From assembly GCA_008632985.1 (NCBI GenBank), contig QPGO01000073.1, positions 1 through 64,000 on the forward strand: DNA of 64,000 bases, in the 5' to 3' direction. Positions 5,231-57,867 of this stretch are shown here, in pieces (the first letter of the stretch is position 1; every line of letters starts with the position of its first letter). A program made the position numbers and the translations under genes. The stretch is from Psammoneis japonica (Eukaryota). Under the pieces are notes generated by a model. It had not been told where the DNA came from and did no database searches. It saw only the letters and a program-made list of their open reading frames with translations.

Positions 5231-7149
5231 GAGATGGAGATGATGCCGTCTCCATTTCGCGTGGTCTGTCCAGCACCATGTTTGTTTGGAAAAATTGACA
5301 CGTGCCTGCGCCAATCATGTGCCGGCATGATGATGTCTGTCTGACACAGCGTGTTGTGCAAAACAGAGATGACGCCTTCTCCATTTCGCACCTGCATGAC
5401 AAGACTTGCCAAACAACAATTTGACATTTTTTCCCTTGTGCAACCCACAGCAAACAGGCACTGAGATTCCACAAAGACGTCAGCCACAACAGCAGGGAAA
5501 TGATGAAAGACCCAATCGGCAAAGAACGTGCAATTGGAAATTTGGTGGGAACCTTGATGTTGAGAGAGATGGGCAGTCCAGGGTGTGTGGCAACAGCGCA
5601 CAACAAAATCTCACCAATTGACAAAGAGTTGACAGTGGAGCAGGCGCACACCATTTTCAGGGTCATTTGTGGCAAAGTGATCGTGAAGAACACAACAGTG
5701 CCAAAGAATCTGATGGGGGGTGTGAAGCCACTTTTCTGCGCAAGCACCCACTGGCAACCCCTGTGTGTGTTTCTGTGCGTGCTCTCGCACTGATGTCGCC
5801 CTTTTCAGACGGCGTTTTGCTGAGTCCCCTGTCAACCTTTTGGCCCCTTCTGCCATTGGCACACCCTTTCATCTCCATGATGTGCAACAATTTTCAGTGG
5901 AAACAACTGGCATCAACACTTTGTGGTTCGTGCGCTTGTTGTCTTGTTTGGCAATTTTTTGCGGATTCAGCGCGATTTCTGCACAGAATCCAGTGCAAGT
6001 TCTGTGCGCTTCAGAAACACATGCCGACAGTCATTGCATCTCCGATGCGATCAACTTCCATCCTTGCCCAAAAGCCCCCAACAATTTCTTTTGCTCCTGC
6101 TGGCCACTCAAGTTCTTCACCCCATGTGGTGAAAGTGCTGTCCCTGTTGTGGTGCCTGCGAGTGTTTGCATGGACAAACCATCGGCATCATCTGATGACC
6201 GTCCATTTGCTGCACAGATCGGCTTTTCTACGCAAGATTCAGCATCAACTCTACGTGAGAATGACATTTCTTCCAACGACCTTCTCGTCACATCACCAAG
6301 ACTTCCTGCTTCATCCTTGCAAGTCACGAACATCCCCTTTTCTGCTTGCTGGCCCACCAAGATCACTGTTCCGAGCAGTGAGCTGCACATTGTTGAGTTG
6401 GTTTGTGCAATTGTGAAATTCAACCAGTCTTTGTTGAAGACATGATTCTCCCTCAGAGGCAAAGATTTTCTCTCAGAGCATGCGCTGACTTTGAATTCTC
6501 TGCTTGACTTGATTGTCCTTTGCTGTGGTGGTTTGGGTGCCTTGCATCCTCTCCGAAAGAAAGCAATGGTCTCATTCTGGTGCAATTTTTCCTTGACCTT
6601 TTGTCGCTGGTGCGCATCGCTGCAAAGCGGCGCGTTGACCGACTGATCGCACGACATTCTGCCTCACTCTCCTTGCAGGGTGTGCTGGAAGTGTGGGTTG
6701 GCCGGCGCCGGTGTTGCTGGGCAAAGGTGCAATGGCACTTGAAATTGGGTTTTGGTTTTTTTTTTTGATGGGGGGTGTGAAATCAGATGGTGGATGCTTC
6801 AAGAAATTGAAGCCACCGTTGCGTCCCATGTCGAAAGGTGTCCCCTGCAAATTGGATGAAATCACCAACGAAGATTGGGAAAAACTGAAGAACAAACAAA
6901 AGAGTGAAAAAAAGGGAGCAGACATGGGAGATCACTTCAACAGGGTCAGCGCAAATGTCAGTCCGGTGGCCATCTCTCTGTTTGCTGGGGTGGCCAGTGC
7001 AAGAAACTGCGATGTTGCAGCCATGTGTCCTCTCAGTCAACCAGATGTCGACCAAAGGCATGCCAACAATGAAAAGATCTGAAACCCAGATTTCAACCCG
7101 CTGGTGCCTGTCTCCGAAAAGAGCTGTGTGGGGACTTTGCAGAGCGCGC

Positions 7150-28744: not shown

Positions 28745-29133
28745 GACGCGTTCCAGGTCTGGGTGGGACCTTGCACTGCTGAACTGTGACGTCGACAGTT
28801 TTTTGAATCGTGTCGCATGTCGCGCACGCACATTTCTGCGTGATTTTGGCAAAATTTTGTGTCATTTTGCAGTGCAATTGTCAGGCAATCCATTCAACAA
28901 CCTTCAATGTTTTTTTCTTCTACGCCATTCTCGAGTGTCTTAAGAATGGCATGGGGCAGGCGTGTTGTCCAAAACTTTGAGTGCGAACAGAGACACATGT
29001 GCTGCAAACTTGGCCATTTGTTTCACGTCAAAGACAAACATGTCCATTGACCAGAGCATGAACTGCAGAGCTTGCAAGTGGAACTCCATGGGGCAAATGT
29101 CACAAAAAATCCCACCTGGGGCTGGAACCCGTC
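28745..29133. mobile_element. MITE, GAC...GTC family, subtype C
   Basis: Ends GACGCGTTCCAG / CTGGAACCCGTC; TSD GGGG. Confidence 0.9.
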
Positions 29134-29324: not shown

Positions 29325-32185
29325 TGAGCAAGGCGCTTGAACAAAGAGTGCGCTGTTTTTGTCAATGATGTTGCGGCATTCTTGCGGCTGTCATTCATGC
29401 CAAGCAAGCCTGCCTTGTCACAAGAAAGCAGCTTCATCTCCTGTTCTCCACACATTTTTGCCCTCAATTGAGGGCAACGGGTTCCAGATGTGGGTGGGAC
29501 TCCGTGTGACATTGGCCCCATGGAATTCCACATGCAAACTCCACAGCAAATCTCCAACAGAAAATGAGGCAATTTTGTGAGCGCACAAACTCACCCATGA
29601 CATGAGCACAACATTTGTTGCTTGACCAGGTGCACTCTTCAGACATTGAAGAATGCACCTGGTGCATTTGTGTTCCCATGATTTTGTCAATTGAAACTTC
29701 TGGGGTTTTGCAAAACAGCAAGTCTGGAACAGTTTTTTGGAAGATGACGTGCAGAAATGTGCGCGCAAAACATGCGATGGATGACAAAAAATGTTGTGTC
29801 ACACATCAGTGCTGCAAGGCCCCACCCAGGGCTGGAATGCATTGGGCATTCACCCTCAGCTGAGGGTGTTCACCCTTGATTGAGGGTGCCACCCTTCATT
29901 GAATGCACCCCATGATCAAATTGAGGTCGACGCATGATCTGGGATTTGAGCGTGCCATGATCTGCATCCAAGGGAGGTGTTTTGCCTTTGCGCTGGCTTG
30001 TCTTTGCTTTGGCTTGATTCAAGATCAAAGGGACGGGCTGCCAACCTGACGTGCGTGGCAATTGTTGTGAAGTTCTGCAAATCCCATGGGGTCTGAGCTG
30101 AAACAATGTCTTGGCAACAGCAAGGCACTTGAACAAAGAAGGGGCTGTTTTCATCAATGACGTTGCGGCATTGCGGCTGTCATTTGCACAGCTTGTTCTC
30201 CTGTTCTCCACACCTTTTTTCCCTCAATTGAGGGTGCTCACTCTCAATTGAGGGTGTTCAGCCTTGATTGAGGGTGCACACCCTTGATTGAGGGCACCCC
30301 ATGATCAAATTGAGGGCCGCGCATGATTTGAGATTTGAGCATGCCACGATCTGTGTCCAGCGGAGGTGTTTTGTCTTTGCGTCTGTTTGAATCAAGATCA
30401 AGGGGATGGGCTGCCAAGCAGACAAGCATGGAAATTGTTGGAAAGTTCTGCGCATGCCGTGGGGTCTGAGCTGAAACAAAATCTTGGCAACAGCAAGGTG
30501 CTTGAACAAAGAGTGTGTTGTTTTTGTCGCCCTTCATTGAGGGCACACCATGATCAAATTGAGGGCGGCGCATGATTTGAGATTTAAGCGTGCCAAGATC
30601 TGCATCTGCAGGAGGTGCTTTGACTTTGCAGCTGTTTGAATCAAGATCAAGGGGAAGGGCTGCCAACCTGACATGCACGGCAATTGTTGGAATGCTCCAC
30701 GCATCCCGCAGGGTCTTGGCTGAAACAAAATCTTGGCAACAGCAAGGCGCTTGAACAAAGAGTGTGTTGTTTTTGTCAATGACATTGTGGTGCTGTGGCT
30801 GTCATTCGTGCCAAACAAGTCTGCCTCATCACAAGAAAGCAGCTTCATCTCCTGTTCTCCTCACATTTTTGCCCTCAGTTGAGGGTGCTCACCCTCAATG
30901 GAGGGCACCCCATGATCAAATTGTGGGCGGTGCATGATTTTAGATTTGAGCAGGCCACGATTTGCATCCAAGGGAGGTGTTTTGTCTTTGCATCTCTGTT
31001 TGAATCAAGATCAAGGGGGCGGGCTGCCCAGCGGACATGCGCGGCGATTGTTGGAAAGATCGGCTCATGCCATGGGGTCTGTGGTGAAACAAAATCTCAG
31101 CAAAAGCAAGGTGCTTGAACAAAGAGTGTGCTGCTTTTGTCAATGATGTTGCGGCGTTGCAGCTGTCATTCATGCCAAACAAGCCCACCTCATTGCAAGA
31201 AAGCAGCTTTGTCTCCTGTTCTCCAGACCTGTTTGCCAACAGTTGAGGGTGCTCACCCTAAATTGAGGGTGCCCACCCTTGATTGAGGGTGCCCACCCTG
31301 AATTGAGCACACCCCATGATCAAATTAAAGGCTGTGCATGATTTGAGATTTGAGCATGCCACAATCTGCGTCCGAGGGAGGTGTTCTTGCATCTGTTTGA
31401 ATCAAGATCAAGTGGATGGGCTGCCAAGCAGACGTGCACTGCAATCATTGGAAAGCTCTGTGCATGCCGCAGGGTCTGAGCTGAAACAAAATCTTGGCAA
31501 CAGCAAGGCACTTGAACAAAGAGTGTGTTGTTTTTGTCAATGATGTTGCACCATTGCAGCTGTCATCAATGCCAAACAAGCCTGCCTCATCACAACAGCG
31601 CAGCTTCTCCTGTTCTCCACACCTTTTTGCCCTCAGTTTGAGGGCACTCACCTGCAACAGCAAGGTGCTTGAACAAAGAGTGTGCTGTTTTTGTCAATGA
31701 TGTTGCGGCATTGCAGCTGTCATTCATGCCAAACAAGCCCGCCTCATCACAAGAGTGCAGATTCATCTCCTGATCTCCACACCTTTTTGCCCTCAGTTGA
31801 GGGTGCTCACCCTCAATTGAGGGTGCTCACCCTCAACTGAGGGCGATCACCCTTGATTGAGGGCACCCCATGATCAAATTGAGGGCGGCGCATGATTTGA
31901 GATTTGAGTGTGCCACGATCTGCATCTGAGGGAGGCATTTTTTCTTTGCATCTGTTTGAGTCAAGATCAAGGAGATGGGCTTCCAACCTGACATGCACAG
32001 TGATTGTTGGAAAGCTCTGCGCATCCCATGGGGTCTGAGCTGGAACAAAATCTTGGCAACAGCAAGGTGCTTGAACAAAGAGTGTGCTGTTTTTGTCAAT
32101 GATGTTGTGGCATTGCGGCTGTCATTCATGCCAAACAAGCCCACCTCATCACAAGAAAGCAGCTTGTTCTCCTGTTCTCCACACA
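29325..32185. repeat. Tandem array of about eight ~370-400-bp units (two truncated) carrying CCCTCAATTGAGGG palindromes
   Basis: Marker CTTGAACAAAGA recurs near 29337, 30128, 30501, 30750, 31114, 31511, 31668 and 32070. Confidence 0.9.
29476..29843. mobile_element. MITE, GAC...GTC family, subtype A in reverse orientation, inserted in the tandem array
   Basis: Degenerate ends AACGGGTTCCAG / CTGGAATGCATT; TSD GGGC. Confidence 0.85.
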
Positions 32186-34096
32186 AGCAAGAGCTCCACA
32201 AAGAGCACAATGTCCCTCGTGAATCCTGTGACCCCAACCCCAACCCCCGCTCTTGTTCTGGACTGCAAACATCCAAACTCCACGGCTTTTTTCACTTTCT
32301 CTTTTACATCTGTCAGCATGGAAATGCGAGCAACTTTTTTTGCAGGTTTTGCGAAGCACTCCCAAAGATTCTTTTGAAACAACCCACCAAAAATGCAAGT
32401 CAACAGCAGGACCGGCTTGACCTTGACATGACAAATTGTCACTGTGAGGACCTTGTTGCCAGGGAGTCAGAGAAGCATTTGCTTGAGACAGGTTGGCTCA
32501 ATGAACAAGAACAAGAAGATGCAGCACCTGGGCCCCAACCCTCGAAGCATGGATGCACAGACCCATGCACTGGATTCAAACCTCATGAGTCTGTGATGAC
32601 GGCCACTTGGGCAACCAACTCTGAACTCACTTGGTCAGTCAAACATGGAGATAAAAAGCTGCTGTTCCCTTTCCATCCATTTGATCCAGGGAATTGTGGA
32701 AACAAGTGGGTGTCTGCTCTGCTTCACCAGGTGGAGCAAAATGAAGCATTCCCTGCAGAGGTGGTGAACTTTCACTTTGGATGTGACCTTCCCGGCACAG
32801 ATGAAGATGATCAAGGCATTCTGTGATGCCACCCCAACTTCCACTTGCATCCGTGGGGATGCAGGAGTTGGCACAACTGGGCCATGGACACTTGGGATGA
32901 AAACAAAACCAGCTGCTCAGTTGCAGCACATGTGTTGTTGTGGGCGATGTTTGAAAATGCAGCCATGGGACAGAAATGCACCGTTTGTGCAGGAAAAAGA
33001 TTCTCTCCTCTCCTTTTTTGTTGGTGATGAAACAGAAATGAAAATGAGAGCAGTTGATGCAAGGGACACACTGTCCACCACCTTTGTTCTTCCATCAACG
33101 CAATTGCCTCAAGATCCATTCCCCAGCAGTTTGGAGGACACTGCCTGCTTTGTTGCAATTCCTCCAAGATTTGAATGGTGCAACATGTGACAATTTCTTT
33201 GACAGAAGAACACCACAATTACAAACATCTTGAGGAGCGCTGGTGATGAAACAAGATGGCACACACCAATCCCACAGCATTCCCAACACACTGATCCTGT
33301 GGCAATCTCAACTTCCTGATTCATTGCAGTGTCAAAATGAGATGATGTGCGCTGATCCCACAGCATTCCCAACACACTGATCCCATCTCAACCACTCAGC
33401 TCATTGCAGCAACAACTGCCTCATCCATTGCAGTGCCATGCATGGGTCAAACTTGTCCAGCTGCAAAGAGCCTGCCGATGACAATGATTTGCTGCTGTCA
33501 TTGAATTGTTGTTCAATGGACAGCAAATCACATTTGGTGAATGTTGCTTTGCAATCAATTTTGTCAGGTGAGGAATCCAACAGAGACATTGTGTTGACCA
33601 CAACCAAATCTGTGTCATCCAAAGCTTCATTGCCATTTGGACCAACAACTGACACATCCTTTTTGTTGTCAAAAACCACATTCTCATTGTGTTCAGAGAC
33701 TTGGTTGTTGGCACTCTTGTCACTGCATTCACTCTTTGCTTCAGACTTTGACAACTCCGTTGCTGCAGCATGGGAAAGTTGCACGCACGAGGCTGCTTTG
33801 TCACACAGAGACTGCAGCAGGGGTGTTGTGTTGCTCCCTCAATGCTTGTTGCAGCTGGGGTGAGGCAGGCATCCAAGACAGTTTGCTTTGAGTTCATCAG
33901 CAACAAACTCACTGAGCTCAGATTTTCCAATTCCTTTTTCCAAAGATGCTCCAAGTGCAACAAAACGTTGGATGGGTTGCAGCATTTCAAAAGTGCTTTT
34001 GTGCATCCACTCCACACTGCCTGCACAATTTCCCTGTGTCATCTTTCTGCAAATGAAACTTTTGGTGTGATGCACTTCCTTCGTGGTTCGACTGCA

Positions 34097-36000: not shown

Positions 36001-39000
36001 TGCACTGTGCTCGAAGAACGAGTGCAAACGAAAGTAGAACAGTGTACGAAAAGTGGAAATCATGAGACCAGATTTTGCTCTGTGATTTTTGGTTTCTCCG
36101 AATGAGTTCTCAATGGCCTGAAGCTTCTGCACTGCTTCTGCAGACAAAAGGCCTTTCGGAGAACACAATCGTGACAACAGACAGTCCGAGTGCGATTGCT
36201 TTTGACACATGAGATGTCAGCATCGTCTGTCAATCGCATTTGCGATTTTCGACTTCCGACCAACTCTGTGTGATCGTTCTGTCCTTCGCACGCATCCACG
36301 ACTGTGGCACGATTGACATGCAAACAACACACAATCATGTGTGTGTGTGTGACAGTCGCATGCTGCACTCGCCTCCCTAATTGCACATTAGAGTCATTTG
36401 TCAAGTGGATTGTTCGACGGATGTTGACAGTGTCAATGATGTCTCCACGTTCACTGCACTGTGCCATTGGCAATGACTGTTGTCGTTTTGTACAGGCCAT
36501 GTGGGGCCGTTCCAATTTCCGAATGTCTTGTGAGAGTGACATCGTTTGTTTCTCACTTTGTGTGTGTGTGTGTGTGGCATTGCGTCGAGTGTTCTCGTTG
36601 ACGTTTTTTGTTGACATGAACACAAGGACCAACTGTCCTGCAGTGTTTTTCATGACATCGATTGCACCTGGCATTGTGCCCAGCACTCAATGCACGCTCT
36701 TTTAACCATTGTGGCATTCACTTCACTTGTGGAGTTCATGTGGTTCTGGCTGGCTAACTTTGTGTGTGCCACACTGCTCTGCTGCACTTCCACGTGTTGC
36801 AAGCAATTGACGATGGTCAAGGACATTTTCCAACCATTTTGTCTTGACAATCCTGGGATGGTTGTGGACTCCTTTGTGGATTTCTTTGTTGCTTCAACCA
36901 TCTTTCCTTTGGATTTTGATCGTCATTTGGACATTTCTTTTTGACATGCCGGCAACATTTTGTCATTCCGAAGGCACTGCTTTTGTGCACTGTTCGGACA
37001 AATGTCCATTTTTGTGTTTTGTTTCTGAATCTTTGGCACATCTCGTGTGACGTCATTTATGTCTTGCCTCGTACATCGTACATTGCAATCGTGCGGGTGC
37101 TGTGAGATTGTCTTTTGCCAATGTGAAGCAGGTGCGTGCAATGTGCGCCAATCTGTCACTGATTTTTTCTTTAACCGTCCCTGAGTGAGGCGATTTTTTC
37201 CTTGTGACATGAGCATTTTTGATCTCGCTCGCCTCCACGAAAAGTGTTCGTATGACATGTCGCGTCCGACAATTTGGAGGAAATGTCTTTGTCCCGTTTT
37301 GTTCAGCATCGAGAACTTTGCAGTTCAACGGAAAGACATTGTCGCAGGATTTTGGTGGGACCTTTTCAGCCAACTCTTCTGTGCTGAGGTTTTCCACAGG
37401 TTCTATTTTTTTGCAGCAAGTCGGCTGATCGCTCTTGCGACGACGTTTGCCTTGCCCTCGATGTGTTTTATTTTGGGGCTAGAATTCTGCACTCTAAGTC
37501 GTCAACGCATGACTCTGTCCATTGTGTGTTGTGAACCGCATGCACAATGATCTGTTGGCCAAACAGCACATTCCAGGAATTGTTGAGTGTTTCCACTGTG
37601 GACAGAAGTTCTTTTTCCGTTGTGACTTGAACATTGCAATGCCGTGTTTGATGGTGACATGGTTTTTGATGTGATGCGCTCCACATTTTCGGAGACTTTT
37701 CGTTCTGCACTTGTCCTTTTGCCGTTTGACCTTTGTTGAGGTGGATTTGGCTGGAAATGTGCAGGAGATCATTGAGACTGCATGTCTTTGTGGTGGCAAC
37801 ATGTGTCGACAAGCTGTCATAATTTTCTTTGCGTTTTGCTCAATGTTGCGATTGCCGGAATCGCCTCCATTTTCTTTGCAATCGGATGTGTGCCGTTGCG
37901 CATGGAAGTCTTGACAACATTTTTCAAGTCAAGCAGTGAAGGACTTTTGTTTGTTGACCTTCAAAGCGACTGTTCCAGTCGTGTGAATGCCATTTCAAGT
38001 TTTTCTTGTGCAGGTGACATTTTGAAGTTACTTTCTGTCAGGTACAAACGTTCATTCATGGTCGTTCTGACAACTTTAAACCTGTCATGAGTTCGCTCAT
38101 GTGTTGCACGAAAATGTCTGGGGCTCTGCAGATTCTCATTGGAAGTCCACAGCACTCAATTTCCCCCACGGCAACATTCTGAGGTGAGCACAACGTGTGC
38201 TTTTTTTGATTTTACATTGTGGTGTTCCATGTTTGAATCGCAACTTCATTTTTAAATCTTCAATCTTTCACAATTGGCCAAATTCCTTTCAAATGGACGC
38301 CTCCAAAGACTGTGACAGGAGAAGGTTCTCGCACGTCGCGTAATCGCGTCAGATTTTTCACGGTGAGATCCACTGGTTCTTCCCATTCATTTGTCCAACG
38401 AACTTTTTCAAAAGGATTTTAAACCTCACAAGAAGGAGACTGAGTGGTTCATCTTCTTTTGGTTCAGATGCATTGCTGCAGCTGTCACTTGATTAGAGTC
38501 GACGGCGTGACAATGTGAGTCGAGAACCATCGGTCTCGTTGTTAACTCTGTTCACTGTGTGATGTTTTTCAATGTGATCGGCACTCAGCTGGAACATTTT
38601 TGCATCGAAGAGTGCATCAACATTCTTCACAGGGTAATTGCTTCACCCCCATTTGATTTCTTCAATTGCGCAGTCTAGTGTGATTGCAAGACTGGACATC
38701 AATTCGCGTCCCATGATCATGTCATTCGACCTTGAAGGGCATTTGGTGTCATTGACACACACTGTTTGAATGTCAGCAAGTCTTAAATTCGCGCAGTGAG
38801 AACTGAATTCGGTGTTTGCTGTCAGTCGTAAAGAGCTCACCCTTGGTTTCCCAAGTTTTTTGGTGGCGGACATCTTGGTTCTCAACTTTCGCACGATTTT
38901 GCGTAAAATCATGGGCTGACGATGTTCTTCATCGAGAGAACACGCAGAAGCTTGTTTTTTGCTTTTCTCAGAGAAGTGATCACATAGACAGCGAGGGTGG

Positions 39001-40636
39001 GACTCGCACAACACACTGTGATGCTTTTTCTGGGTTTCCAGACGTCCTGCAACGCGTTGTGCTCCTTGAGCGGTGTGAATTTTTGATCGGACTCGATCGG
39101 GTCAATTTTTCTAAATTGACAGTTTTGTTCGTCAAGCATTTTAGAGTCTTAATTTTTGCTCTTGTTTTTACGTTCCTTTGTCGAGGAACTCGCTTCAATT
39201 GTTTTTGTGAACTGCCTGGTTCATGGTTCAGTTCAATTCCTCTTTCACAGAGGCATTTCTGCTCTCGTCACGTTCGCGTGCGATTGCCATTTAGAGCGTC
39301 GTATTTTTGGGTCTCTTTTAGAGCCACCCTTGCACTCTTTCGCCAACTCATTTTCAGAATGGCTTCAATCCGTGATGTGGGCATTCTTCTTTCAAAGATT
39401 GGACCTTTTGTTCACTTTGGATTGTGGTGGCACCACACAGGAGACCATTTTTGGAACCAAAATTGGAGCCTTTTTGATTGTGGAATCAACTGCACTGTCA
39501 GAGCCCGGGTTGATGTGTTTTTTTTGTCACAGACGTCCTTGCCGACCTCTGGACGACTCAAACCTCAATCAGCTCGTCAAGGGTGTGATCCAGCAGTTCA
39601 ATGTTTTGGACAGTGGGCTGATGCTGCCATCCTTGCGGTGCGAGTGACAGCTGACAAATCAGCGCTCGGTTTCCCGCTAGATTCGACTTAGAATCCATCT
39701 GAGGGTCGTGTGGACTCTCATCGTTGACCTCTTGGGTCTGTCAGAGGCTTTCTTGCTGTTGAGCGGCTCTGGTTTCTTCAGGTCGTCTCGAAAATAATTT
39801 CCCTGATTCTGAAGTGCATTTCCTCGGAGGACATGAGTTGTGAGACGCTTGAGGCACTTTCCAACGATTCCCTCTTGCTCCTTGGACTCGAGGATCATCG
39901 ACTCGGTCTCAAAAAACTCCCCAACAGTCTCTCCTTGCATGGCAGACGCATTTCTCGGATCTGATCGACTCGGAACTTGCACTCTCTGCAACCATGACTT
40001 GGTGTAGATTTTTTGACAATGCAGTGCACTTGAGAGCCCTTGATCCTTGGGTGCTTGGAGCAGACCGCATTGGAGCGAATCCTCTTGTTTGGCAGACGAA
40101 AAACAGCGTTCCATCTTGAGGCACTGCTCGGCTTGAGCTTCTTCCGCTCGGAAATCGATTCCAGCAGAACTGATGCGATTCGTTCCTGTTCACAGAAGAA
40201 TTTGCAAAGGCACATTAGTTGAAATTTTCATTTTCCGTGCTTTTTACCTTCTGTGGTGTGTGTGCACAATGCACCATGCTCAAAGAACGAGTGCAAACGA
40301 AAGCAGAACAGTGCACGAAAAGTGGAAATTATGAGATTAGATTTTGCTCTGTGATTTTTGGTTTCTCCGAATGAGTTCTCAATGGCCTAAAGCTTCTGCA
40401 CTGCTTCTACAGACAAAAGGCCTTTCGGAGAATGCAATTGTGACAACAGATGGTCCGAGTGCGATTGCTTTTGACACACAAGATGTCAGCATCGTCTGTC
40501 GATCGTATTTGCGATTTTCGACTTCCGATCAACTCTGTGTGATCGTTCTGTCCTTCGCACGCATCCACGACTGTGGCACGATTGACATGTGAACAACATG
40601 TGATCATGTGCATGCACACAACAGTCGCACACTGCA
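36001..40636 (-). mobile_element. Ty3/gypsy LTR retrotransposon, degenerate and internally shortened
   Basis: 367-bp LTRs at 36001-36367 and 40270-40636; TSD CTTC; PPT GGAGGCGAG; protease-like DMIMGRELM (~38710), RT remnant LPM...PDIF (~38130) and RNase H TTEKELLSTVETL (~37600) in gypsy order. Confidence 0.9.
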
Positions 40637-41666
40637 CTTCTTTGGACAAGCAGTGTTGGCACTGCTGCAAGTTTTGTCCATGACGATGGCAATTCATGCA
40701 GTTCCTTTCACATGGGACAAGTGAATTGATCAGTTCCTGAGTTGTCCCAAAGTCTGTGTGGTGGCAGACAATGTTCTTTTCCAACAAAAGCATGTGCTGC
40801 GGGTCCTCTGGCAACAAAGTCTGAACATGCATCAAATCTGCAAGTGTGCAATCAACTTCAATGGGGTTTGGAAACCTCGCCTTGATTGTCAAACAACAAC
40901 TCTTGTCATTTGTTGCATTGACAAACAGCAAGCACGGAACACCTGTTGTTTGTGTTGTTGTTTGTGCAGAAGTCAAATGCATCACTGTCAGCCAACCAAT
41001 TGGTGTGTGCTGCACCAACTGCAATGAAAATTGCTGCTTGTTGTGATCTTGCTCAAATCTTGTTAAGAACAAGATTGTCAGTTTTTTTGTGCAGACAATT
41101 GCCAAATCATTGATTGATTCTTGACAAGAGATGAACAACATGACAAGATTTGTCAATTGTTCATGAATGAACAACAATCAACAAAGCCACCTGTGCAACT
41201 AAAACTTGGTGCAAAACTGTCCTGAGCCAATGATGCAAGCAATGTGTCACCCAAAAATGCATCTGCACCTTGTGTCAATGTTGGTGCAGCAGCTGACAAC
41301 AGAAGAGCAGCCATGGACAAAAGCAGTCAGGGTGAGACTGCTGCCTTTTTGCACTTTTTAGATGACAATCTTGACGTTCTGAGCCCAAACAATGGCAATG
41401 TGTCCCTTGGTTTGTTGTCACCCTCACCACATTGAGAGAGGAAAAAACAACCACAAGAAGCTGCTTGCCCCACCAAGCAATGTTCATCTGTTTGAAGAAG
41501 GTGTCAACAACACCTCTGACATTCGGAGTTTGGAAAGTCTGCCAAAAATCACCGCTTCCCAACAAAAGGATGGATCCAAAACCAAGGAACTGTTTGGCTG
41601 TTTCTTGGATGAACCCCTTCAACCATTCATCCTGAAACAGCAGAGCACTGTGAGGAGACTGTCACC

Positions 41667-43450
41667 ATGAAGAGCAACCATGTGTTCTTTGCTCAGAGCA
41701 ACCAGGAATGGGAGCCAGACAAACCACTTGTCATTGACAATGCAACTTTGGCAAAGACATTTGAGGTGGGCTTTGGGAGGTGTTGGTTGGCACTTTGTGT
41801 GCCTCCTCTGTCTGTTTGTGAGGAAGCATTCAAATGTCACAAGATTGATGATGTGACATTGAGGGAAACAAGAGATGGTCTTTTGGAATTGACAAAGAAT
41901 GAGGCAAATTTGAGAGATGGAAAGGAACTTTTCACAAAGGGGCGCAAGGCCGCCAAAACGTCCAGGAAATGCCAAGTCCATTTCAGCAACCAGAGCAATC
42001 CCAGGTTGAGTGGGCCAGCTGCACACACCCCCAAAAACACAGACATGGGAAGGTTTGGATCTGTCAAGCTTGTCCAGAAGTGCTCAGAAGCAAAGGAGAA
42101 GGAAGTGAGCAAGAACACAAGATCTGTCATCAGCTCTTTGGTCAAGGTGAGTCTGGACACATTCTGCTTGTTCGACATCTTTTCTCCATCTGGAGAGCTG
42201 ATGAACAAGCAGAGTTGTTGGTGGGAAACCACAAGGAGACTCCATGAAAGGGCAAAACAGTTTCCAAATGTGGATGCAAAAGATTGCTTGCCAGAAGATG
42301 AGATGCCGCACAGTGGCCTCACGGTTGGAAGCGGGTGTTGCGGCAGTGCAGCTGGCATTCACATCAACAACAATGCCTCAATGCGTTGGAATGGTTTGCC
42401 AAATTTCCATTGCAACCTCACAGACAATCCCAGCATTGCTCTCCTTGCACATGTGCCAGTCAAGAAGGGTGTGTTGAAGCCAGTCTTGGCTCTGCAATGT
42501 GCCAAGACCATGACTTGCTTTTGTGCTGGATCGCTGCATCACAGAGCGGTGCATGTGGGAACGTGCACAACTCATCTGAGCCAATTGTTTGAAGGAGCAG
42601 GAGAAGCAAAAAAAAACGCGTTCCAGGTCCAGGTGGGACCTCGCACTGCTGAACTGTGACATCAACATTTTTTTGAATCACGTCGCATGTCGCGCACGCA
42701 GATTTCTACGTGATTTTTTCGACATTTTGTGTCATTTTACGGTGCATTTGTTGAGCGATCCGTCCAACAACTTTTGACATTTGTTGTTGCAGTGCGATTC
42801 TATGATGTCTTAAGAATTGCATGGGGCAGGTGCGTTTGCAAAAACCTCGAGTGGCAAGAGGCACAATTGCACCACAAACTTGGCCGTTCATTTGATGTTG
42901 AAGATGAGTGTGTCCATCAATTAAATTCTTGCACTGCGGAGCTCGCACGTGGAATTCCACGGGCCAAATGTCACACGGAGTCCCACCTGGGGCTGGAACG
43001 CATCACAAGTTGCCAACAGCACAGCCAGAGTGGACGGAAAAGTGTGACAAAAGCCACCCGCATCTGTTTCTGGCATGGCGCACCAAGCAGAACTTGCCAT
43101 TGGTGCATGAGACAGAGGTGGTTTGTCAAAAAAGCAGCAAGGAACCTCATCTCTTTATGATGAAGATTGGCGGCAGACCAAATCAAATTGCCAACAACAG
43201 GAATGAATGGAAGGATCTGATGAGTGCAGGCAGAGACAAGGGTTGCATCCATCCATGCAAAAAGTTGGACAAAATGGAACCTTGTCATGATTTTGGAGAG
43301 ACACGCAGAATTTACGAAATTGGGCATCCACAGGAAAGCAAGCAGATCTTTGTCCTCAACAAATCAGGTCAACACATCATTGTTCAAATTGAAGTGGACT
43401 GCTGCACAAAAAAAGTCAAGTTCCTGCAGGCATGTCAGCAGCAAATGCTG
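41667..43450 (+). pseudogene. Decayed 2OG-Fe(II) dioxygenase, TET/JBP-like (tentative), interrupted by a MITE
   Basis: PHSGLTVG...GIHIN (HxD if ATCAAC was ATCGAC) at 42360-42368; FCAGSLHH second His at 42540; PHLFLAWRTKQNL at ~43058-43096 resembles the RxSxVxY strand. Recognised by eye only. Confidence 0.45.
42615..43004. mobile_element. MITE, GAC...GTC family, subtype C
   Basis: Ends AACGCGTTCCAG / CTGGAACGCATC; imperfect TSD AAAA / ACAA; internal match to 22828, 28745 and 45035. Confidence 0.88.
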
Positions 43451-45650
43451 AGTCAACAGCTTTGTTGGCTGCACCATCACCCACCACCATCTCTTCATCA
43501 CCCTCCTCCATCTCTTCATCAATTGCAGGAATGTCGTTGGTGCCCATCACAGATTCGTTGTGAACAGGAGGCAAGAGATCAACTTGCTCTCCATCCCTGG
43601 GTTGGGTGTGACCAGCTCCTTCATTGTTTGTCATAAAATCAAGAGCTGGTGCTGTGGGCATGTCCATTGCTGGGGACACAGTTCCGGGCATGTGGGCGAA
43701 GCCCAGCACATTGGGTTGCTCCCCATCTGAATGAGCAGTGGATGGACAACATGCCAGCTCAAACCTGGAGCTGGGGGCACTGGCTTCAATCGGAGCACCA
43801 CCATTCAATGACCTGTTGGAGGATGGGACAACATCATGGCGCCACATGAAATTTTTGATGTCTTGGGCAACACTCTTCTACTTGGATTTTGTCAAAGGGG
43901 CATTGGCTGCAAAGTGTTTGCGCCAGTTTGCACATTCTTGAACAGGGTTCTCATCAGCTGGCTGACTGCTTTTGGGAGCCGGTGGCACCTCATCCATGTT
44001 TGGTCAATGGAAACTTGGCCATGATCAATTGCACAAGTGCCTCCTGAACAATGCTGGGCATGCAGTGGATGACAGTCCGTCCCTGATTCTCAGTGCAGAA
44101 TTTGGTGGCAACCTTGTTGTGGCTCTGCTCCTGGTTCTTCACTGCTGTGTGTGCATGACACATGCACGCAGTGGCAGCACAGGGGAGAAAGAGATCAACC
44201 CACAAAGAGGGAACCCTTCATCCAAAGTGGCAGGCTGCATGTGGATGGACTGCATCACAACAATGAGCTGCGGCAAGATTTTGTTCAATCACATTGCCTG
44301 GAGCACTGTCGTTGGAGCCAACTTGGCACTTGATGAATGTGCTGTCCAGCAGGTCAGGAAACACAGCGCTGCCTGCCTTTGGTGGAAGGAGGCAATCAGC
44401 CTGCAAGCAGAGGAAAGAAGCAAAGGCATCTTGTTCTTGGTTCATGAAATTCAGGGCTGAGGGGCCAACCTTTTCCCAAAACTTTTGACGGACATTGGCA
44501 GCGCTGCACTTGTGAATTGACTTGTCCTTGTCTTTTGGCAAGAAGACCTGTTCCCAAACCATCTTTGCAAAGGGACATTCAGAGTGAACACCACCATCCA
44601 GCAGTGACTGCATGTTCATGCTGTTTGCAATCTCTTGTTTTGATGTGAAACCAAGAGAGAACAGCAGTGCTCCACCCACCTGAAGTTGCTTGCCTCATTG
44701 ACAAGGTCCGTCTCCAGAGTTGTCATTTCTCCAGTGTGAAGGGTCTTTTTCTGAACAGGCAGAGAGACTCTGTGGTTTTGTTGGCTTGGGTGACATTTTC
44801 TGACAGTCAGCTGCCCTTGTCTGAGTTTCTTTCAACAGCTTTTCATTTTGGTTTTTGCAAAGTCCGTGCACTCACCAAACAAAATGCAGCCACATTTTGT
44901 GCTCCTCGAGCATCAAATTTTTGGGGTCAATCTGGCAGGTGGCGCACTGCTCAGAGGCCTGAAGCAGTTTGGGAGTTTTGCAAGAAGGGGTTGCATCATG
45001 TTGCCAAAGAAATGCAAGATCTTGTGGTGGAATTGACGTGTTCCAGCCCCAGGTGGGACTCTGTGTGACATTGGGCCCGCAGAATTCTGCGTGCGAGCTC
45101 CGCAGTGTGAGAATTTAATTGATGGACACAATTGTCTTCATCATCAAAACAATGGCCAAGTTTGTGGTGCAATTGTGCCTCTTGCCACTCGACGTTTTTG
45201 CAAATGCACCTGCCCTGCGCGATTCTCAAGACATTGTAGAATCGCGCTGCAACAAAAAATGTCAAAAGTTTTTGGATGGATCGCTCAACAAGTGTGCCGC
45301 AAAATGACACAAAACATCAAAAAATCACGTAGAATTCTACGTGCGCAACATGCGACGAGATTCAAAAAACTGTCGATGTCACAGTTCAGTGGTGCGAGGT
45401 CCCACCCAGACCTGGAACGCGTCAATTGCAGGAGAGTCCACAACTCCATCCATCTCTTGGGAGAGAGAGGAAGGAGCGGCAGCAGCTTCAGTTGCTGGGT
45501 TGTCAGATGACGGATCTTCAGAAACAGAGGGAGGCTGTTGATGCAAGCTGGTCCTCCTTGTGGCTTGTGCAGGAGCAATGGGACCACCCCGTCCTGCACG
45601 GCCAGCACCACAACCATGGCCACGGCCACCTGGTTGGGTCATCTTGTGCC
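43420..45650 (-). pseudogene. Decayed ORF of unknown function, convergent with the dioxygenase-like ORF
   Basis: Successive protein-like frames (RGG-like start, 44218..44679, 43990..44205, acidic tail 43416..43847), interrupted by the MITE at 45035. Confidence 0.35.
45035..45423. mobile_element. MITE, GAC...GTC family, subtype C
   Basis: Ends GACGTGTTCCAG / CTGGAACGCGTC; TSD AATT. Confidence 0.93.
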
Positions 45651-48229
45651 ATTTCTTTGGTGGCGTGGTCAACAAACACACCAAATGGCAACATGTGTGG
45701 ATGGAAGAGTTGGCTGCTGGGAGCAGAGAAAAAAATTGGGGAAGTTTCATTCTTGACAAAAGAGCACACCAATGAGATGCAATGTCAAATGACAAGAAAA
45801 TGTAAAAACAGGTGCAAGGTGACAAGAGCAAAGGCATCACATGAAAGAACAAAATCGACGATATTGTGGCATGCTTGAGTCTTTCAAAACATTCAAAACT
45901 TTGCAAAGTTGGGCAAAACACTGTGTTTTAAAACATGAGTGCAACTCAAACAAGGACAGCAAATGAAGTGGATGGACGGATGTGATCAAAATTCTGGCCA
46001 AAAACAAGGAGTGTGGTCTGTCCTCACACCACAGAGAACAAGATGATGAGAGAGACACTGGCGGGTTGAGGAAGCGGAGTGGCAGAGAGAAAGGAGAAAA
46101 AGTGTGGGACATGAGGCATGAGACAGGGGGGAGCATGAGCTGGGAGCACGCAAGGCCAACACACTTGCACTTTCAAAAAACTTTGCACACAATGCACGAA
46201 GGCATTGTGATGATGCAGCAAGTGGCTGAGCACAGAGGGGATGATGCAGGTGTGGGACACAAGGCATGAGACAGAAAGAGAGTGAGCTGGGGCAAACAAG
46301 GTGCGCAAACTGACACTTTTGACTTGCGCTTGCAAAAAACTGCACAGGCGTTGCATGCACATGTTGTGACCATGCAAAAGGTGGGCCAAGAAGAGTGTGC
46401 GGGGACAAGGGAGGCAAAAAGGTGAGCAGCATCAGTGTGACAAGCCATTTGAACATTGAAGAAAAGCAAAACTCCAAAGATCATTCACACGCTGTCTTCT
46501 CAGGTGTCAGGCAACGTGGTGGGTGAGAACAGGGGAGGGGGCGAAAGTTGGATCACGGCCAAAATGAAGCACTTCTGAATGCAGCCAATGGAGAGATGGC
46601 AATTGCAAGGGAGGGACCAAGGGCAGGACAAAATGGAGTGGTTGCTGTGGAGGACAAGAGGGAACTCACAAGGGGAGAGAGAAAGAATGTGAACAAGGAA
46701 GAGGAAACAAAAAAGCGTCTTCAGGTGGAGAAATGAGATTTTAGAACCAACACGAATCAAGCTCAAATGGAAAAACAGACACAGCATTGTGAAGTCATTG
46801 TCAACACCAATGAGCATTGTTGCTGTGTTCTGAACAGTGTGAGAAAATTGCAGCAAATTGACACTTGACAAGAAAGAGTCATTGAAAAAAAAAGGCTGCA
46901 TTGAGTGTCATTTCCCACTTGGAAGGTTCTTTTAATTGCCAACAAAATCCAAAATCAGCGGTCAGTCAGTCATTGTCAAGATTGTGTTTGTGACAAGGCT
47001 GATTGGTTTTGAGTGCCAAATCCCACTTGGAATGTTGAAACAGTTGTCAAACTGCATTTGTGCAGTGTTGATGAACCCTTGTCAAGAGAGCGGGACTTTC
47101 AAGGAGAAAGATTGGATTCTGAACAAGAGCAACAATGTTTTCCAGACAAAACACATGTCAGATTGAGTGGCCATGCTTGTTCTTTCCTTTGACCCATCTC
47201 ATTTTCAGAGCACAGTGTGTCATGCATTCTTCTTGTGTCAAGTGGTCACAAACAAAGGACAAGGCAAAAACAGAGCCGCACATGAGCAACATTGACATGG
47301 CAGATTTGACGGCAAAGTTTCTTCTTTTCTTGCTCTGCCACAAGGGGCTGCTTTGTGTTGACATGTTGATGCATTCATTGTCGTGCATCGTGTCTCATCA
47401 CGTCGCCGTTGGTCATCATGAGGACAAAAGCACACCCACTCAACTGCAATTGCTGCATGTTGGAACATTCCATTTGTTTTTGTTCCCCTCCCCTGAGCCC
47501 TTTCATGCGTTCCTTCTGGCAAAATTGCCCTCATTTCACCCTCATTTCCCAGGTTTTCCCCAAAGGGCAAGGCAATTCCCCCTCACCCTGGCCATTTTGG
47601 GGAATCCCCAAATGGGCAAAATCAAACTGAGCTGTTGAAATGACCACCACAGAACTGGCCACATGGGACATGCATGAGCCCTGCATGTTGCGGTCCTCCC
47701 GTTGGCAGCAGAGACAACTGATTGTGTCACCTGGCACTTTTGAATGCTCCTGGTGACAAAGTGACCAGTTGAAGGTTGAAGGGCAGCAGGTTTTTCAGTT
47801 TTTTTTTTCTTGATCTTGTTTTTGCACAGCTGAGTCATCAGAGCGCACATTGCAGTGATCCAGACCACCTTTCTCACAGCAATTTTTTTGGTCGGTTGCA
47901 GCACAAAATTCTGTTGTTTCAAACCTTGACAGTTGTGCAGCTGGCAATGACATGTCAACCATGACAGATGAACATTTTTTTTGCTGTGGAAACAGCCCCC
48001 CCTCCCCATGAGGAAAACGTGTTTTGCTGTGAAACAGGGGCGCATTTTCCCCATGAGAACACCCACCCTCCATCCCTGCAAAACCTGCAAATTAAAGTCA
48101 TTTTCATTGCAGCACAAACATTCCATTTTGTTGTTTGCATTTAAATTTGATGGTGCTGATGGAGACCACACCACAGAGTTTGCAGCAGCTGCTGCAGCTC
48201 TTGTTTTCTTGAAGTGCTGCTGCCAGCAG

Positions 48230-48640
48230 CCACCTTGTTCATTGCCAAAAAAGTGCAAAATGCATCGTGAGAGTGCAGTGTGGCTGAGCTGACACCACCA
48301 ACAGGAACGGCAACACAGACTTGCTGGTGCATCCAGCACCGCTGATTCTGGAGCAGGCAAGTTTGTGGCAGGAACTGCTGCTCCATTGTTTGAGGTGCCG
48401 CTGCTCTGCTCCACCTCATTCATTGCCAAAAAGAGCAGAGCATGTTGTGAGAGTGCAACACAGATGAACCAACATGACCCATGGGAATGGCAACATGGGC
48501 TCACCAGTGCATCCAACTCTGCTGGCTCTGGAGCAGGCAAGTTTTTGGCCAAAGTGCTGTTGCTCTGATCCACCTTGTTCATTGCTGAACAGCACAGAGC
48601 ACATTGTGAGAGTGCGACACTTGATGGTGCATCAGTGCAT
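48230..48640. repeat. Degenerate tandem repeat, about 2.5 units of 160-180 bp
   Basis: CACCTTGTTCATTGC...GTGAGAGTGC recurs at ~48231, 48412 and 48571; CTGGAGCAGGCAAGTTT occurs twice. Confidence 0.7.
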
Positions 48641-48779
48641 CTGGCGCCACTGACTCCGGAGCAACACAGATGCCGGTGCATGGTGCAAGACGTTGAGCAC
48701 CCAGCTCCGCCCCTCTGCAACTCAAAGAAAGCACAGAAAAAAAGCATGCAAGCAAGCAAAAAACATCTTGAGTGCCACA

Positions 48780-49545
48780 AAATGCACTTGCTGGAATGGC
48801 TGTGGGAACAGGCACCGCCTGCATGTGTGCCACACTCTGCACAAGGCACTGCGTGAATGGCAAAGTCACATGGCAATGACCAAGTTTGCCCCACACCTCC
48901 CATGCTGCAGACAGTTCATCGATGACATGTTTAGAGCATGGACCAGAAACAGCAGAGAGACTTGGGAAGCCTTTGAAAACAAGCCCAACAACTCAGGCAA
49001 CCTCCAATGGGTTGTGCCTCCCCACTCTCTGCCTCTGCAGTCTTTCTGGATCTGGGTGCGAAAATTGGAAAAGACGGATGCAACGTAAGTGAACATGTCA
49101 AAAACCAACAAAGCGCTTTTTGTGCATGCTTTTTTTGAAGAGTGTCATGTGTGGCAAAGAACTTGTCATGCGTGTGATTCTGAGAGCTGCAGGGACAAGC
49201 ACCGCCTGCAGTCTTTCTGGATCTGGATGCAGAAATTGGAGAGGACGGATGTGTTGTTGGCAAATGCATCAAAAACCAATGAACCTTTTTTTGCACACAC
49301 CTTGTTTGAAGAGTGTCATTTGTGGCAACTCACAATGATTCTGGATGCAAAACTCTGACATGCACAATTGCACCAATGCTGCAGAAAAGCAAGTTTGTGA
49401 CATGTGTGCACACAACAAAACACCAGCAGCTCAGCATTCTGGATGCGGCAGATTCTTGACAGCACACTCGTGATCACAAAACTCAAGCTTTGCCCAAATC
49501 AAAACCCATCTTGACCAACCAGAAGGACAGCAGGTTTCGCCATGT
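48780..49545 (+). mobile_element. Penelope-like retroelement RT fragment with a ~170-bp tandem duplication
   Basis: GMAVGTGTACMCATLC (cf. GxAMGT..ACMYATLY), LPCCRQFIDDMF (cf. YYxRFIDD); VFLDL thumb region duplicated at ~49035 and ~49205. Confidence 0.65.
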
Positions 49546-54320: not shown

Positions 54321-54465
54321 AAACCATTATTTAGAGTTCGCGCTTCCGTCCGTCCGCACAAACCACAATTTTTCCCGACCACGCAGGGATCGAGAATCGA
54401 GAAATCATTTCATCTTCTTTGCGTCGAAGCCTGGACTGTCTACGTTTTCCTCGAAATGTTGAACA

Positions 54466-56003
54466 ATGAAAAAACCCTTGAATCCCTCGGAAAAAGCGGC
54501 GCTTGACGCCGAGGTGGTTATTGTGGGGGCTGGAATCAGTGGCGTGTGTGCTGCCATTGACTTGTTGCGACAGGGTTGCACCTCGTTCATCGTACTGGAG
54601 GCCCACCCAGATACACCGGGTGGCACATGGCGACAGAATACGTATCCCGGAGTGGCAGTGGATATCATGGTGGTCTCTTATTGCTTTTCTTTCGAGACAG
54701 ATTATCCCTGGTCCCAACAGTATGCCCCCGGAGCTGAAATTTTGTCTTACATTCGTCATTGCATTACAAAGTACGGCATCGACAAGTACATTCGCTACGG
54801 ATCACGTGTCCAAAGTTGCAAATTGCATCCAAATGAAAACCAGTGGGCGATACACCTTTCCAATGGCGGCGTTCTTCACTCTCGACATGTAATATCGGCC
54901 ACTGGGATATTAGCCACACCCAAGTTCCCGTTGATTGCTGGAATGGAAGAGTTTCAGGGCAAGACGATGCACACGGCCCATTGGGATCATGGCTACGATC
55001 TCCGAGGCAAACGCGTCGGCATTGTCGGCACAGGTGCCTCTTCGGTCCAGGTTTGCCCCTCCATTGCGCCCATAGTGGAACATTTGTACGTGTTTCAACG
55101 GACACCCATCTGGGTGTGCCCCGGACCCAACTGGAGTCTCCACCCAAACAGTCCTCAGCGCCGCTTTTGGTTTTGCAGAAAGATTTTGTGGTTCGTGAAC
55201 GAACTGGCGTTTGAAGTTATAACTTTTGTCATTACCAACTATAAATACCTCGGCTGGTTAGTCCGATTGGTCCAGCAACTGCTACGATTGTACATGAAAT
55301 TTCAAGTCAGAGACAAAGCGGTTGCTGAAAAGTTAATTCCTAGTTACACGCTCGGATGTAAGCGACCTACTGTCAACAACGAATACCTTCCAATGTTCAA
55401 CCGGGACAACGTGTCGCTCGTCACACACGAGATCAGCAAAGTTTGCACCGATGGAATCGTCACAATGGACAACAACAAACTACACAAGCTAGATGTTATC
55501 ATCTGGGCCACCGGTTTCCGAACCACCGAAAAACACAACATGCCCAGTTTCAAAGTGTTCGGAAGGGACAATGTTGAACTTGGACAGTTCTGGGAAAAGA
55601 ACAGGAAACAAGCATATGCTGGTGTTGCCGTACCGGGCTTTCCAAATTTCTTCTTGACGGCTGGTCCTTACTCGGGAGGTTTCAATTGGTACCCATGGTA
55701 GAAGCACACGTGTCTCTCATTAGTCACTGTATCAAGCAATGCACGGGTGACATTACAGCGGTGGAAGTGAAACCGAAAGCACATCAGCACTACATGCAGT
55801 ATATGTGGTCTCGAGCTAAGGGATGCGTTTGGGTCAGCACGTCATGCGCTGGATCGAACAGCTATTATCTCGATGGTCATGGAGACGCGTCTTTACCGAT
55901 TCCGCAGACTCCGTGGTGGAGGTACCGTTGGATCGACCGAGGACCGGCTAAGGACGGGTTTTTTTACTCGTCTTGTTCTGGCACTAGCACTACTTCACGC
56001 TAA
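54466..56003 (+). CDS. Flavin-containing / Baeyer-Villiger-type monooxygenase, intronless, with a 1-nt frameshift near 55695
   Basis: GAGISG, GGTW, BVMO fingerprint FQGKTMHTAHWD, GTGASS, GCKR, WATGF, FPNFF; C-terminus continues in frame 55686..56003 (MVEAH...SNSYYLD). Confidence 0.9.
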
Positions 56004-56514: not shown

Positions 56515-57618
56515 TTAAGCAAGCACCCACGGCTTAAGGGCTGCGCGACCGTTCTCCTGGATGTCAGCTGAGTCCGTGTATGTCTCGACGGCCTTGGCAA
56601 CTGCAGTGAATCCTCCAGCCTTTGCAACCTCTGGCACATACTCAGTCCAGTTACAGATATTGGCAAAGGCATAGCATCCACGAGACTGAATCTCCTCCGA
56701 ATCGGCATATGCCTGCATCGCGGTGGCAATAGTGATGAGTCCTCCACAGGCGACAACGCGTTCTGCGTTGTCCTTATTCTCGTGGATAAGGTTACCGAGT
56801 CCGGCAATGCCATACTCTTGCACAAGCTCGTCGCCCTTGTGCTCATTCATGCTGGCGACAGTACTCTCGACGCCGCCAAGTTCACCCTTCATGTTGCGGG
56901 CATCTGCGTCCATAGAGAGCGTCTTGAGCGCGCGGCAAGCCTGTCTCTGAATGCCAACGTTGGCTCGGAACTTCTTCAGTTTGCGAATGATGGTGAGTGG
57001 GCCACCAATCTGATAAACTTTGTTCCGGTTTTGTTCCTCAGCGCACAAATCGGCAAGGTCGCTCAAACCCTTCTCCACCTTTTCTTCCTCGCCGCTAGGC
57101 AAATCTTCCATCATGATTTCAATGATTCGGGCCTTTCCGTCTTGCTGAGGTGGAGTAGCAGTTTCTTCCTCTTGCACAGGCTCAGCTTCATCTGCAGGCT
57201 CGGATTCTAGTTCGGCTTCTGTGGGCTCAGCCGCTTCCGTCGGTTCAGCTTCTTCAGCTTCCACTGGCGTTGCCTCTTCCGTTGGCTCGGCTTCAGCTGG
57301 CTCAGCCTCTTCCGTCGGTTCAGCAACTTCGGGAGAAGCTTCTTCCGTTGGCTCGGCTTCTTCGGGAGTAGGCTCCTCAGCGGGTTCGAGTGTAGGCTCT
57401 TCGACAGCCTCCACTTGTTCTTCTGCAGGAGCTTCTGTCTCTTCCGTAGGTTCGGCATCCTCGGTTTCGGATGGCTCTTCTACTTCAACAACTTCGGTCC
57501 CGTCGTCATTCTCAGCAACGGTCTCGACAATAACTTCCTCCTTGGTCACTGGAGTAATTTCACTTGTGACGGAGCCGCTGTCGCACACAACAGTTTCTTC
57601 AGGTTCGAGGGGAGACAT
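56515..57618 (-). CDS. Armadillo-repeat protein with an acidic E/A/P/T repeat N-terminus
   Basis: Intact ORF with normal TpA and Tyr; EEAEPT repeats then ARM-like helices (IQRQACRAL, VQEYGIAGLGNL, IQSRGCYAFANI); first ATG at 57618. Confidence 0.85.
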   Translation of the reverse strand: MSPLEPEETVVCDSGSVTSEITPVTKEEVIVETVAENDDGTEVVEVEEPSETEDAEPTEETEAPAEEQVEAVEEPTLEPAEEPTPEEAEPTEEASPEVAEPTEEAEPAEAEPTEEATPVEAEEAEPTEAAEPTEAELESEPADEAEPVQEEETATPPQQDGKARIIEIMMEDLPSGEEEKVEKGLSDLADLCAEEQNRNKVYQIGGPLTIIRKLKKFRANVGIQRQACRALKTLSMDADARNMKGELGGVESTVASMNEHKGDELVQEYGIAGLGNLIHENKDNAERVVACGGLITIATAMQAYADSEEIQSRGCYAFANICNWTEYVPEVAKAGGFTAVAKAVETYTDSADIQENGRAALKPWVLA

Positions 57619-57739
57619 GGTGTTTTGGTAACGAGTAGTGGAACAGCCGATGATCGAGATGCAACGGATCGAATTGTGAGGCAAGAAAAGGGGTGAGAGA
57701 TGATGAGAGATGACGGAAGGAAGATTTTTGAAATTTTGA

Positions 57740-57867
57740 TGACGTCGACCGTATCTGACGTTGCGATCATTTCACTTCATCACATACATAGAAAGATAAA
57801 TGACATACTAACTGTAGCAGCGGTGCTGACGTCGATCTCGCTTTCTTCGTTCGATAGTCTGACGTCA
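57740..57867. promoter_or_regulatory. Cluster of four TGACGT (CRE/bZIP-type) motifs upstream of the ARM gene
   Basis: TGACGT at 57740, 57756, 57827 and 57860; the last is the full palindrome TGACGTCA. Confidence 0.4.

Follow-up and report, generated by a model that had tools for sequence, protein, structure and literature searches.

A probable insertion-split relic of a TET/JBP-like dioxygenase gene in TpA-erased DNA of Psammoneis japonica

The 64-kb stretch of Psammoneis japonica DNA analyzed here (the window) has lost nearly all its TAA and TAG triplets, and long open frames are common in it for this reason. Such DNA raises the question of whether any given frame is a gene at all. A sequence-only reading had singled out two neighboring plus-strand frames, at 41613-42656 (348 aa, ORF1) and 42908-43633 (242 aa, ORF2), as the remnant of a TET/JBP-like dioxygenase lying inside mobile DNA. 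We asked whether these frames constitute a real gene, which enzyme it would have specified and how it came to lie where it does. At a probability of roughly 0.85, the region 41625-43207 is what remains of a dead gene, split by an insertion, for a TET/JBP-like Fe(II)/2-oxoglutarate (2OG) dioxygenase belonging to a family that has so far gone unnamed.

One gene in two parts around an inserted element

ORF1 and ORF2 are the two halves of one decayed gene, which flank an inserted element of 390 nt. The first part of the gene (41625..42614, plus strand, within the frame 41613-42656) comprises the N-terminal region together with the greater part of the oxygenase core, and the second (43010..43207, plus strand, within the frame 42908-43633) specifies the strand with the co-substrate arginine and the C-terminal helices. 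The conceptual translation of the first part contains MPHSGLTVG..GIHINNN followed by CFCAGSLHHRAVH, and that past the insertion contains PHLFLAWRTKQNLP; hence, the frames and the motif strings are found, in their unrestored form, at the positions that had been claimed for them. The same reading had begun the protein at the ATG at 41667. This is indeed the first ATG, with no in-frame ATG before 41625, but homology to the relatives described below begins upstream of it, at 41625. The gene in the window is intronless, and no second copy of it was found in the 64 kb either with a family hidden Markov model (HMM) run on six-frame pieces or by repeat comparison.

The interrupting segment (42615..43004) is a non-coding, MITE-like inverted-repeat element, as judged from its copies and its termini, GACGCGTTCCAGG..CCTGGAACGCGTC. 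An alignment of six copies with their flanks places a 4-bp target-site duplication on either side of it, AAAA on the left (42611..42614) and ACAA on the right (43005..43008). At least five other copies of the element lie within the window, each with a 4-bp duplication of its own: the six aligned copies show GCAT, AATT, GGGG, TCCA, GAGA and, for the copy in the gene, AAAA/ACAA. The copies at 22825-23216 and 45034-45422 share 87-88% identity with the element in the gene, and one at 28746-29128 (28745-29133 by its wider bounds) shares 76%. The element family as a whole spans ~390-400 nt, with termini of the form GACGCGTTCC..GGAACGCGTC, and has further copies at 11097-11497 and 4836-5235; its members vary at TA/TG sites (e.g. 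TCTACGT versus TCTGCGT), as if TpA hypermutation hits them too.

The proposal that a MITE interrupts the gene is thereby borne out by the inverted termini, the duplication and the copies elsewhere in the window. The accompanying proposal of a 1-nt shift in an A-run on joining the two halves also holds: excision of 394 nt, i.e. the element plus one duplication, leaves the frames 1 nt apart beside an A-run, the second part being out of frame with the first by that single nucleotide. The element has a CG observed/expected ratio of 1.03 and retains five TA dinucleotides, as against a CG ratio of 0.21-0.26 in the gene, and is therefore younger than the gene, having been inserted after most of the decay.

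Relatives, predicted fold and the candidate active site

A phmmer (HMMER) search with ORF1 against 1.84 billion cluster representatives recovered 20 matches at E<=1e-3, the best of them with an E-value of 2.4e-11 over residues 55-331. One of the 20, P0013, is a false match to a repeat protein (DUF7507). The other 19 are true relatives and align to ORF1 over almost its full length, and ORF2 from 43010 takes up the alignment where ORF1 ends (PTAQPEW...HLFLAWRTKQNLP versus LQPEWW...RFFLATYTRSSLP). We also built a local family HMM from 27 database proteins, leaving out the window sequence. Its match to ORF1 (E 1.3e-41, positions 4-314) is circular, since the proteins in the HMM had been picked using ORF1, but its match to ORF2 (E 3.3e-5, positions 309-377) is free of this circularity; among all other six-frame pieces of the window of at least 30 aa, none scored below E 0.02. 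By blastp, the second part of the gene matches residues 327-393 of one relative, P0003, with an E-value of 5.9e-7.

The sole name borne by these relatives in their source databases is "hypothetical protein". Pfam returned no match at E<=10 for ORF1, ORF2 or the frame of the MITE, all unrestored (0/3), and detected neither Tet_JBP (PF12851) nor any other 2OG oxygenase domain at E<=1 in any of the 20 ORF1 matches. Searches against PDB sequences yielded weak and irrelevant matches only for the two frames (phmmer), and IP3 receptors only, at E>=0.65, for the family profile. In a word-indexed protein search limited to near lengths, ORF1 recovered no relative and the family profile recovered five; at longer lengths the profile recovered none, so that a fused form was not seen, which is weak evidence. 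The ESM Atlas gave best scores of 0.77 for the ORF1 core and 0.79 for P0003, both below lead level. PHROGs gave no relevant match for nine relatives and ORF1, and the IMG/VR viral contigs contained no relative of the family. A search of sequencing runs matched one DNA run, possibly the source itself, with no RNA run among the matches listed.

The affinities of the family are seen instead in the predicted structure of P0003, an intact relative of 421 aa with a normal tyrosine content. Modeled from a 22-row alignment, it folds into a double-stranded beta-helix (pLDDT 86.1, pTM 0.87). In a Foldseek search of the PDB with this model, all 18 matches listed to rank 25 are TET2, CMD1, CcTet or NgTET1, the best TET-class match having an E-value of 2.2e-6 and FTO coming next at 8.9e-4. 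VIA-align against 48,161 representative chains likewise placed NgTET1 (Z 13.9), CcTet (13.6), TET2 (11.9) and CMD1 (10.8) at the top, followed by a generic 2OG oxygenase (10.6) and FTO (10.4), with NgTET1 aligned to the model over 213 of the 266 residues of NgTET1. In the viral library BFVD, ranks 1 and 5 are proteins named as JBP1/TET oxygenase domain proteins. The model of ORF1 itself is poor (pLDDT 64), and none of its Foldseek matches reached E<=0.001; CcTet nonetheless fills all ten of the top rows, the best at E 4.1e-3. Judged by the modeled fold, then, the family is TET/JBP-like and falls outside the Pfam Tet_JBP family. The identification of a TET/JBP-like 2OG-Fe(II) enzyme made from the letters alone is thus upheld to the extent that the beta-helix model is nearest to the TET class, but it finds no counterpart in a 2OG-Fe(II) or Tet_JBP profile match.

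Alignment of the relatives reveals a set of strongly conserved polar positions (numbered as in P0003): H245 is kept in 19/19 relatives, D247 in 18/19, N250 in 16/19, D260 in 20/20, H262 in 19/20, the distal histidine H306 in 18/18, H310 in 17/18 and R347 in 14/16. In the P0003 model, H245 is at the end of a strand, H306 is at the start of another and R347 begins the strand 347-353; two helices, spanning ~40 residues, intervene between the distal histidine and the arginine strand. Assigning the metal ligands from the alignment and secondary structure, we infer that the H-x-D motif and the distal histidine form the iron triad and that the arginine contacts the co-substrate, each in the usual placement on the beta-helix. 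The H-x-D, distal histidine and arginine layout that had been read into the window sequence is, accordingly, one that the intact relatives keep. The same layout on beta-helix strands is common to the family and to the best structural matches of the model, namely NgTET1 (5cg8), CcTet (7vpn), human TET2 (9hxv, 7ne6) and Chlamydomonas CMD1 (7cy4). Identity with these solved TET-class enzymes is only 9-13%, with no sequence-profile match, and the family is distinguished from them by the two-helix segment before the arginine strand and by an additional D-x-H motif and second histidine. These additional residues are near-invariant, with the D-x-H at 260-262 of P0003 and the second histidine (310) four residues past the distal one; they could constitute a second metal site or even be the true ligands.

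In the window copy, several of these positions have changed. An H-I-N (42360..42368, plus strand) aligns with the H-x-D of the relatives, an N-F-H (42402..42410, plus strand) with their D-x-H, and, in the distal histidine strand (42540..42554, plus strand; placed by the alignment and the P0003 model), an H-R-A-V-H with their H-G-S-V-H, the glycine being present in 15/18 relatives. Past the insertion, a CAT codon for histidine (43061..43063, plus strand) occupies the site of the arginine found in 14/16 relatives. The asparagine codon of the H-I-N, AAC, is preceded by a C and fits a CpG-to-CpA change, and a change from CGT to CAT at the arginine site fits CpG decay as well. All three replacements, Asp to Asn, Gly to Arg and Arg to His, come after a C in this way, and such CpG-decay changes at conserved residues suggest that the locus was once cytosine-methylated.

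Loss of TA is equally evident in the gene. Its first part has no TA in 1,002 nt (CG observed/expected 0.21) and its second part has two in 442 nt; ORF1 has no tyrosine whatsoever. There are ten alignment columns that are mostly tyrosine in the relatives with normal tyrosine content, and at the seven where the window has a residue, it is Cys or His in four, Phe in two, Arg in one and Tyr in none. The individual restorations proposed earlier met with mixed success. Asn to Asp, Cys/His to Tyr in YFYAGSLYH and His to Arg all agree with the relatives, but PHSG should not become PYSG, histidine being the residue in 15/18 relatives. The broader expectation that restoring TA and CG would improve the fit to the family was not realized: 49/132 TA and 50/157 CG reversals improved it as against 138/417 control transitions (p 0.40 and 0.84), in what is a weak test, given that hypermutated proteins went into the HMM and that the majority of the CA/TG sites are ancestral. 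The window copy is dead and without function now.

How secure is the assignment? If the frames were a chance product of DNA devoid of TA and consequently of TAA and TAG stops, long frames would be unremarkable, and the window does have 42 frames of at least 200 aa spread over all six reading frames, among which ORF2 taken alone is not unusual. However, at 0.027 stops per codon only ~0.2 frames of at least 348 codons are expected per window, and the E-value of 2.4e-11 in a search of 1.84 billion proteins and the collinear match of ORF2 both speak against chance, which we regard as a practically negligible explanation. A closer competitor is that the family comprises generic 2OG-Fe(II) oxygenases, such as AlkB/FTO-like repair enzymes or protein hydroxylases, whose likeness to TET comes via the shared beta-helix core. 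The Z-scores of AlkB-family enzymes, FTO and prolyl hydroxylases (8.5-10.6) do come close below that of CMD1, and the lack of a Tet_JBP profile match in the window frames and the 20 relatives points the same way. But the top four of the 48,161 chains are all TET-class, NgTET1 aligns over most of its own length, the TET class leads by more than 100-fold in Foldseek E-value and JBP1/TET-named proteins come first in the viral library, leaving the generic alternative improbable.

A TpA-erased, repeat-rich setting and a possible carrier

The gene lies in DNA from which TpA has been all but removed. In the 8-kb blocks of the first 48 kb, the TA observed/expected ratio is 0.04-0.09 and that of CA and TG is 1.5-1.8; in 1-kb steps, the TA-erased block extends over 1-54 kb with ratios of 0.00-0.20. 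In the region of the gene, CA reaches 1.80 and TG 1.64. TA returns to 0.49-0.75 at 54-57 kb, where recognizable host genes sit: a frame for an FMO-like monooxygenase (54463-55698, plus strand, E 6.7e-15) and an ARM-repeat frame (56518-57771, minus strand), both of near-normal TA content, mark the edge of the block at ~54 kb. A second TA-erased island follows at 58-60 kb.

The only recognizable mobile genes in the window are fragments of Copia-type reverse transcriptases at 12-23 kb. No Pfam match to a transposase or helicase was obtained among the 96 window frames of at least 150 aa, nor among 94 of the 107 listed frames of 70-149 aa at ~35-52 kb, the remaining 13 having been omitted as overlapping the gene or the MITE copies. 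Thus, of the earlier statement that the gene is inside the mobile DNA, the TpA-erased, repeat-rich setting stands, but no transposase accompanies it in the interval 35-52 kb.

Several other features of the window are worth recording. The Copia-type RVT_2 fragments at 12354-17071 on the minus strand (E 1e-8 to 7e-11) include a ~2.67-kb tandem duplication of 83-87% identity. Just upstream of the gene, two 369-nt direct repeats of 90% identity (36001-36369 and 40270-40638) lie 4.27 kb apart, and the DNA between them, in which Pfam has no match, has TA (0.10-0.20) and CG (0.66-0.91) ratios above those of its flanks; the pair at 36001-40638 may be a younger LTR-type insertion. A satellite-like array at 61-2300 consists of 88 overlapping repeat copies with spacings of 17, 37, 54 and 71 nt and an AT skew of 0.565. 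Tandem repeats with units of ~250-400 nt (families D2-D6) and internal CCCTCAATTGAGGG palindromes occupy 29383-32230. Within the TpA-erased DNA there is also a 457-aa minus-strand frame (47545-48915) for which neither Pfam nor the PDB yielded a match.

Members of the family encountered elsewhere show comparable decay. Six of the 20 database relatives are nearly free of tyrosine, and the TA observed/expected ratio of seven metagenome loci is 0.03-0.05 in three, 0.24 in one and 0.57-0.66 in the other three; diverse copies of the gene have therefore undergone the same hypermutation. In three of the seven loci (L001 and L007, which are near-identical, and L003, at ~45%), a frame is found convergent to the TET-like gene. 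These decayed frames, on the minus strand at 423-3453 of L007, 589-1395 of L001 and 656-1261 of L003, have weak similarity to PIF1 helicases and UvrD_C_2: PIF1 helicases account for 10/12 rows (E 0.14-0.97), UvrD_C_2 is matched at E 0.025, the top row, with an E-value of 0.02, bears the name AAA family ATPase, and the frame carries a P-loop of the GPAGAGK type. Such a PIF1-like neighbor hints at a possible Helitron-like carrier. An HMM of this neighbor found nothing in the window at E<=1. Among the neighboring frames of the metagenome loci, the only other Pfam matches at E<=0.01 were two that resemble chance, and a PDB search with the second frame of L005 recovered no relative.

These observations bear on whether the locus could be a regular gene of the host that degenerated where it stood and was never mobile cargo. 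In keeping with such an origin, the window shows neither a transposase nor a helicase nor terminal repeats at the borders of the gene, and a second copy is lacking in the 64 kb. Yet the gene sits in a 54-kb TpA-erased block together with Copia fragments and MITEs, and the host genes at 54-57.8 kb have retained TA ratios of 0.49-0.75; hypermutated copies recur among the database relatives and the metagenome loci; a weakly PIF1-like helicase gene adjoins the family gene in three of seven loci, two of these being near-identical; and the gene is intronless. Decay of a resident host gene is hence doubtful as an explanation, although it deserves to be kept in mind, and carriage of the gene as cargo of mobile DNA is likely but unproven.

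The history that best accommodates these features is of a TET/JBP-like gene that mobile DNA probably brought in. Thereafter, CpG decay and the hypermutation of TpA to CpA/TpG would have removed its TA dinucleotides and tyrosine codons and put Asn for Asp, His for Arg and Arg for Gly at catalytic positions. Later, the younger 390-nt inverted-repeat element would have split it; a 1-nt frameshift also lies at the junction. As for the intact relatives, the P0003 model suggests that they most likely bind iron through the H-x-D and the distal histidine and 2-oxoglutarate through the arginine on the next strand, and their most likely activity would be the oxidation of a methylated pyrimidine in DNA.

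Parallels in other systems and what the family may mean

TET/JBP dioxygenases are encoded by fungal transposons according to Kojima 2025 (PMC12730594), an account that also describes very distant TET-like proteins detectable only by structure-aware methods. What the fungal cases described there share with the window is a TET-like gene in repeat DNA; the differences are that the host here is not a fungus, that no carrier transposon has been delimited and that the decay is of TpA and CpG rather than of the RIP type. In the red alga Bostrychia, Plavaka transposons are reported to carry PAG3, a putative 2OG-oxygenase accessory gene (10.1101/2025.02.11.637652). As characterized in that preprint, it too is an algal mobile-element gene whose 2OG-oxygenase domain is missed by standard domain scans, but it has an N-terminal ParB-like domain and adjoins a DDE transposase, neither of which was found here. 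A third parallel is the dinoflagellate TET/JBP thymidine hydroxylase, reported to make 5hmU on repeats (PMC11572971). It resembles the family in being a protist enzyme of the TET/JBP type tied to transposon control. As presented in that report, however, it is encoded by the host and flags transposons to be silenced, whereas the gene in the window lies within silenced, mutated DNA.

The decay itself also has a precedent. In Bigelowiella natans, foreign DNA undergoes TpA-to-CpA/TpG hypermutation (Mettrop et al., bioRxiv 10.64898/2026.01.13.699255), and the signature reported there is shared by the window, with its TA ratio of 0.00-0.20 over 1-54 kb and CA/TG of 1.6-1.8. Those authors propose an adenosine deaminase as the agent, and the Results of their preprint carry no mention of a TET-like gene. 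In a non-exhaustive search of the literature, we found neither this family nor a TET-like gene in TpA-erased DNA.

Could intact members of the family themselves oxidize thymine at TpA and so be the enzyme behind the TpA-to-CpA/TpG change, in place of an adenosine deaminase? The 5hmU or 5-formyluracil that results from thymine oxidation can mispair with G, and members of the family do occur in TpA-erased DNA (6/20 relatives and 3/7 environmental loci). Nevertheless, such a location does not link the family to the TpA process, because any mobile gene residing in a host of this kind would be found there, and we consider the idea very improbable. Two functions had been floated for the gene in the sequence-only reading, one as an anti-silencing factor of a transposon and the other as a relative of the TpA mutator; neither is supported by anything tested here.

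What is new is that an unannotated family, TET-like at the level of the fold, joins the DNA-base oxygenases of protist repeat DNA. That a trace of it was picked out from the letters of this window indicates that the relic of a real enzyme can be recovered from heavily mutated DNA by reading without tools. The cytosine methylation of the locus suggested by the CpG decay fits the idea that such genes act in a conflict between mobile DNA and host methylation. With the window copy being dead, the value of the find lies in the intact relatives such as P0003, which are open to expression and assay; their assay would also probe a thymine oxidase as a possible basis of TpA hypermutation.
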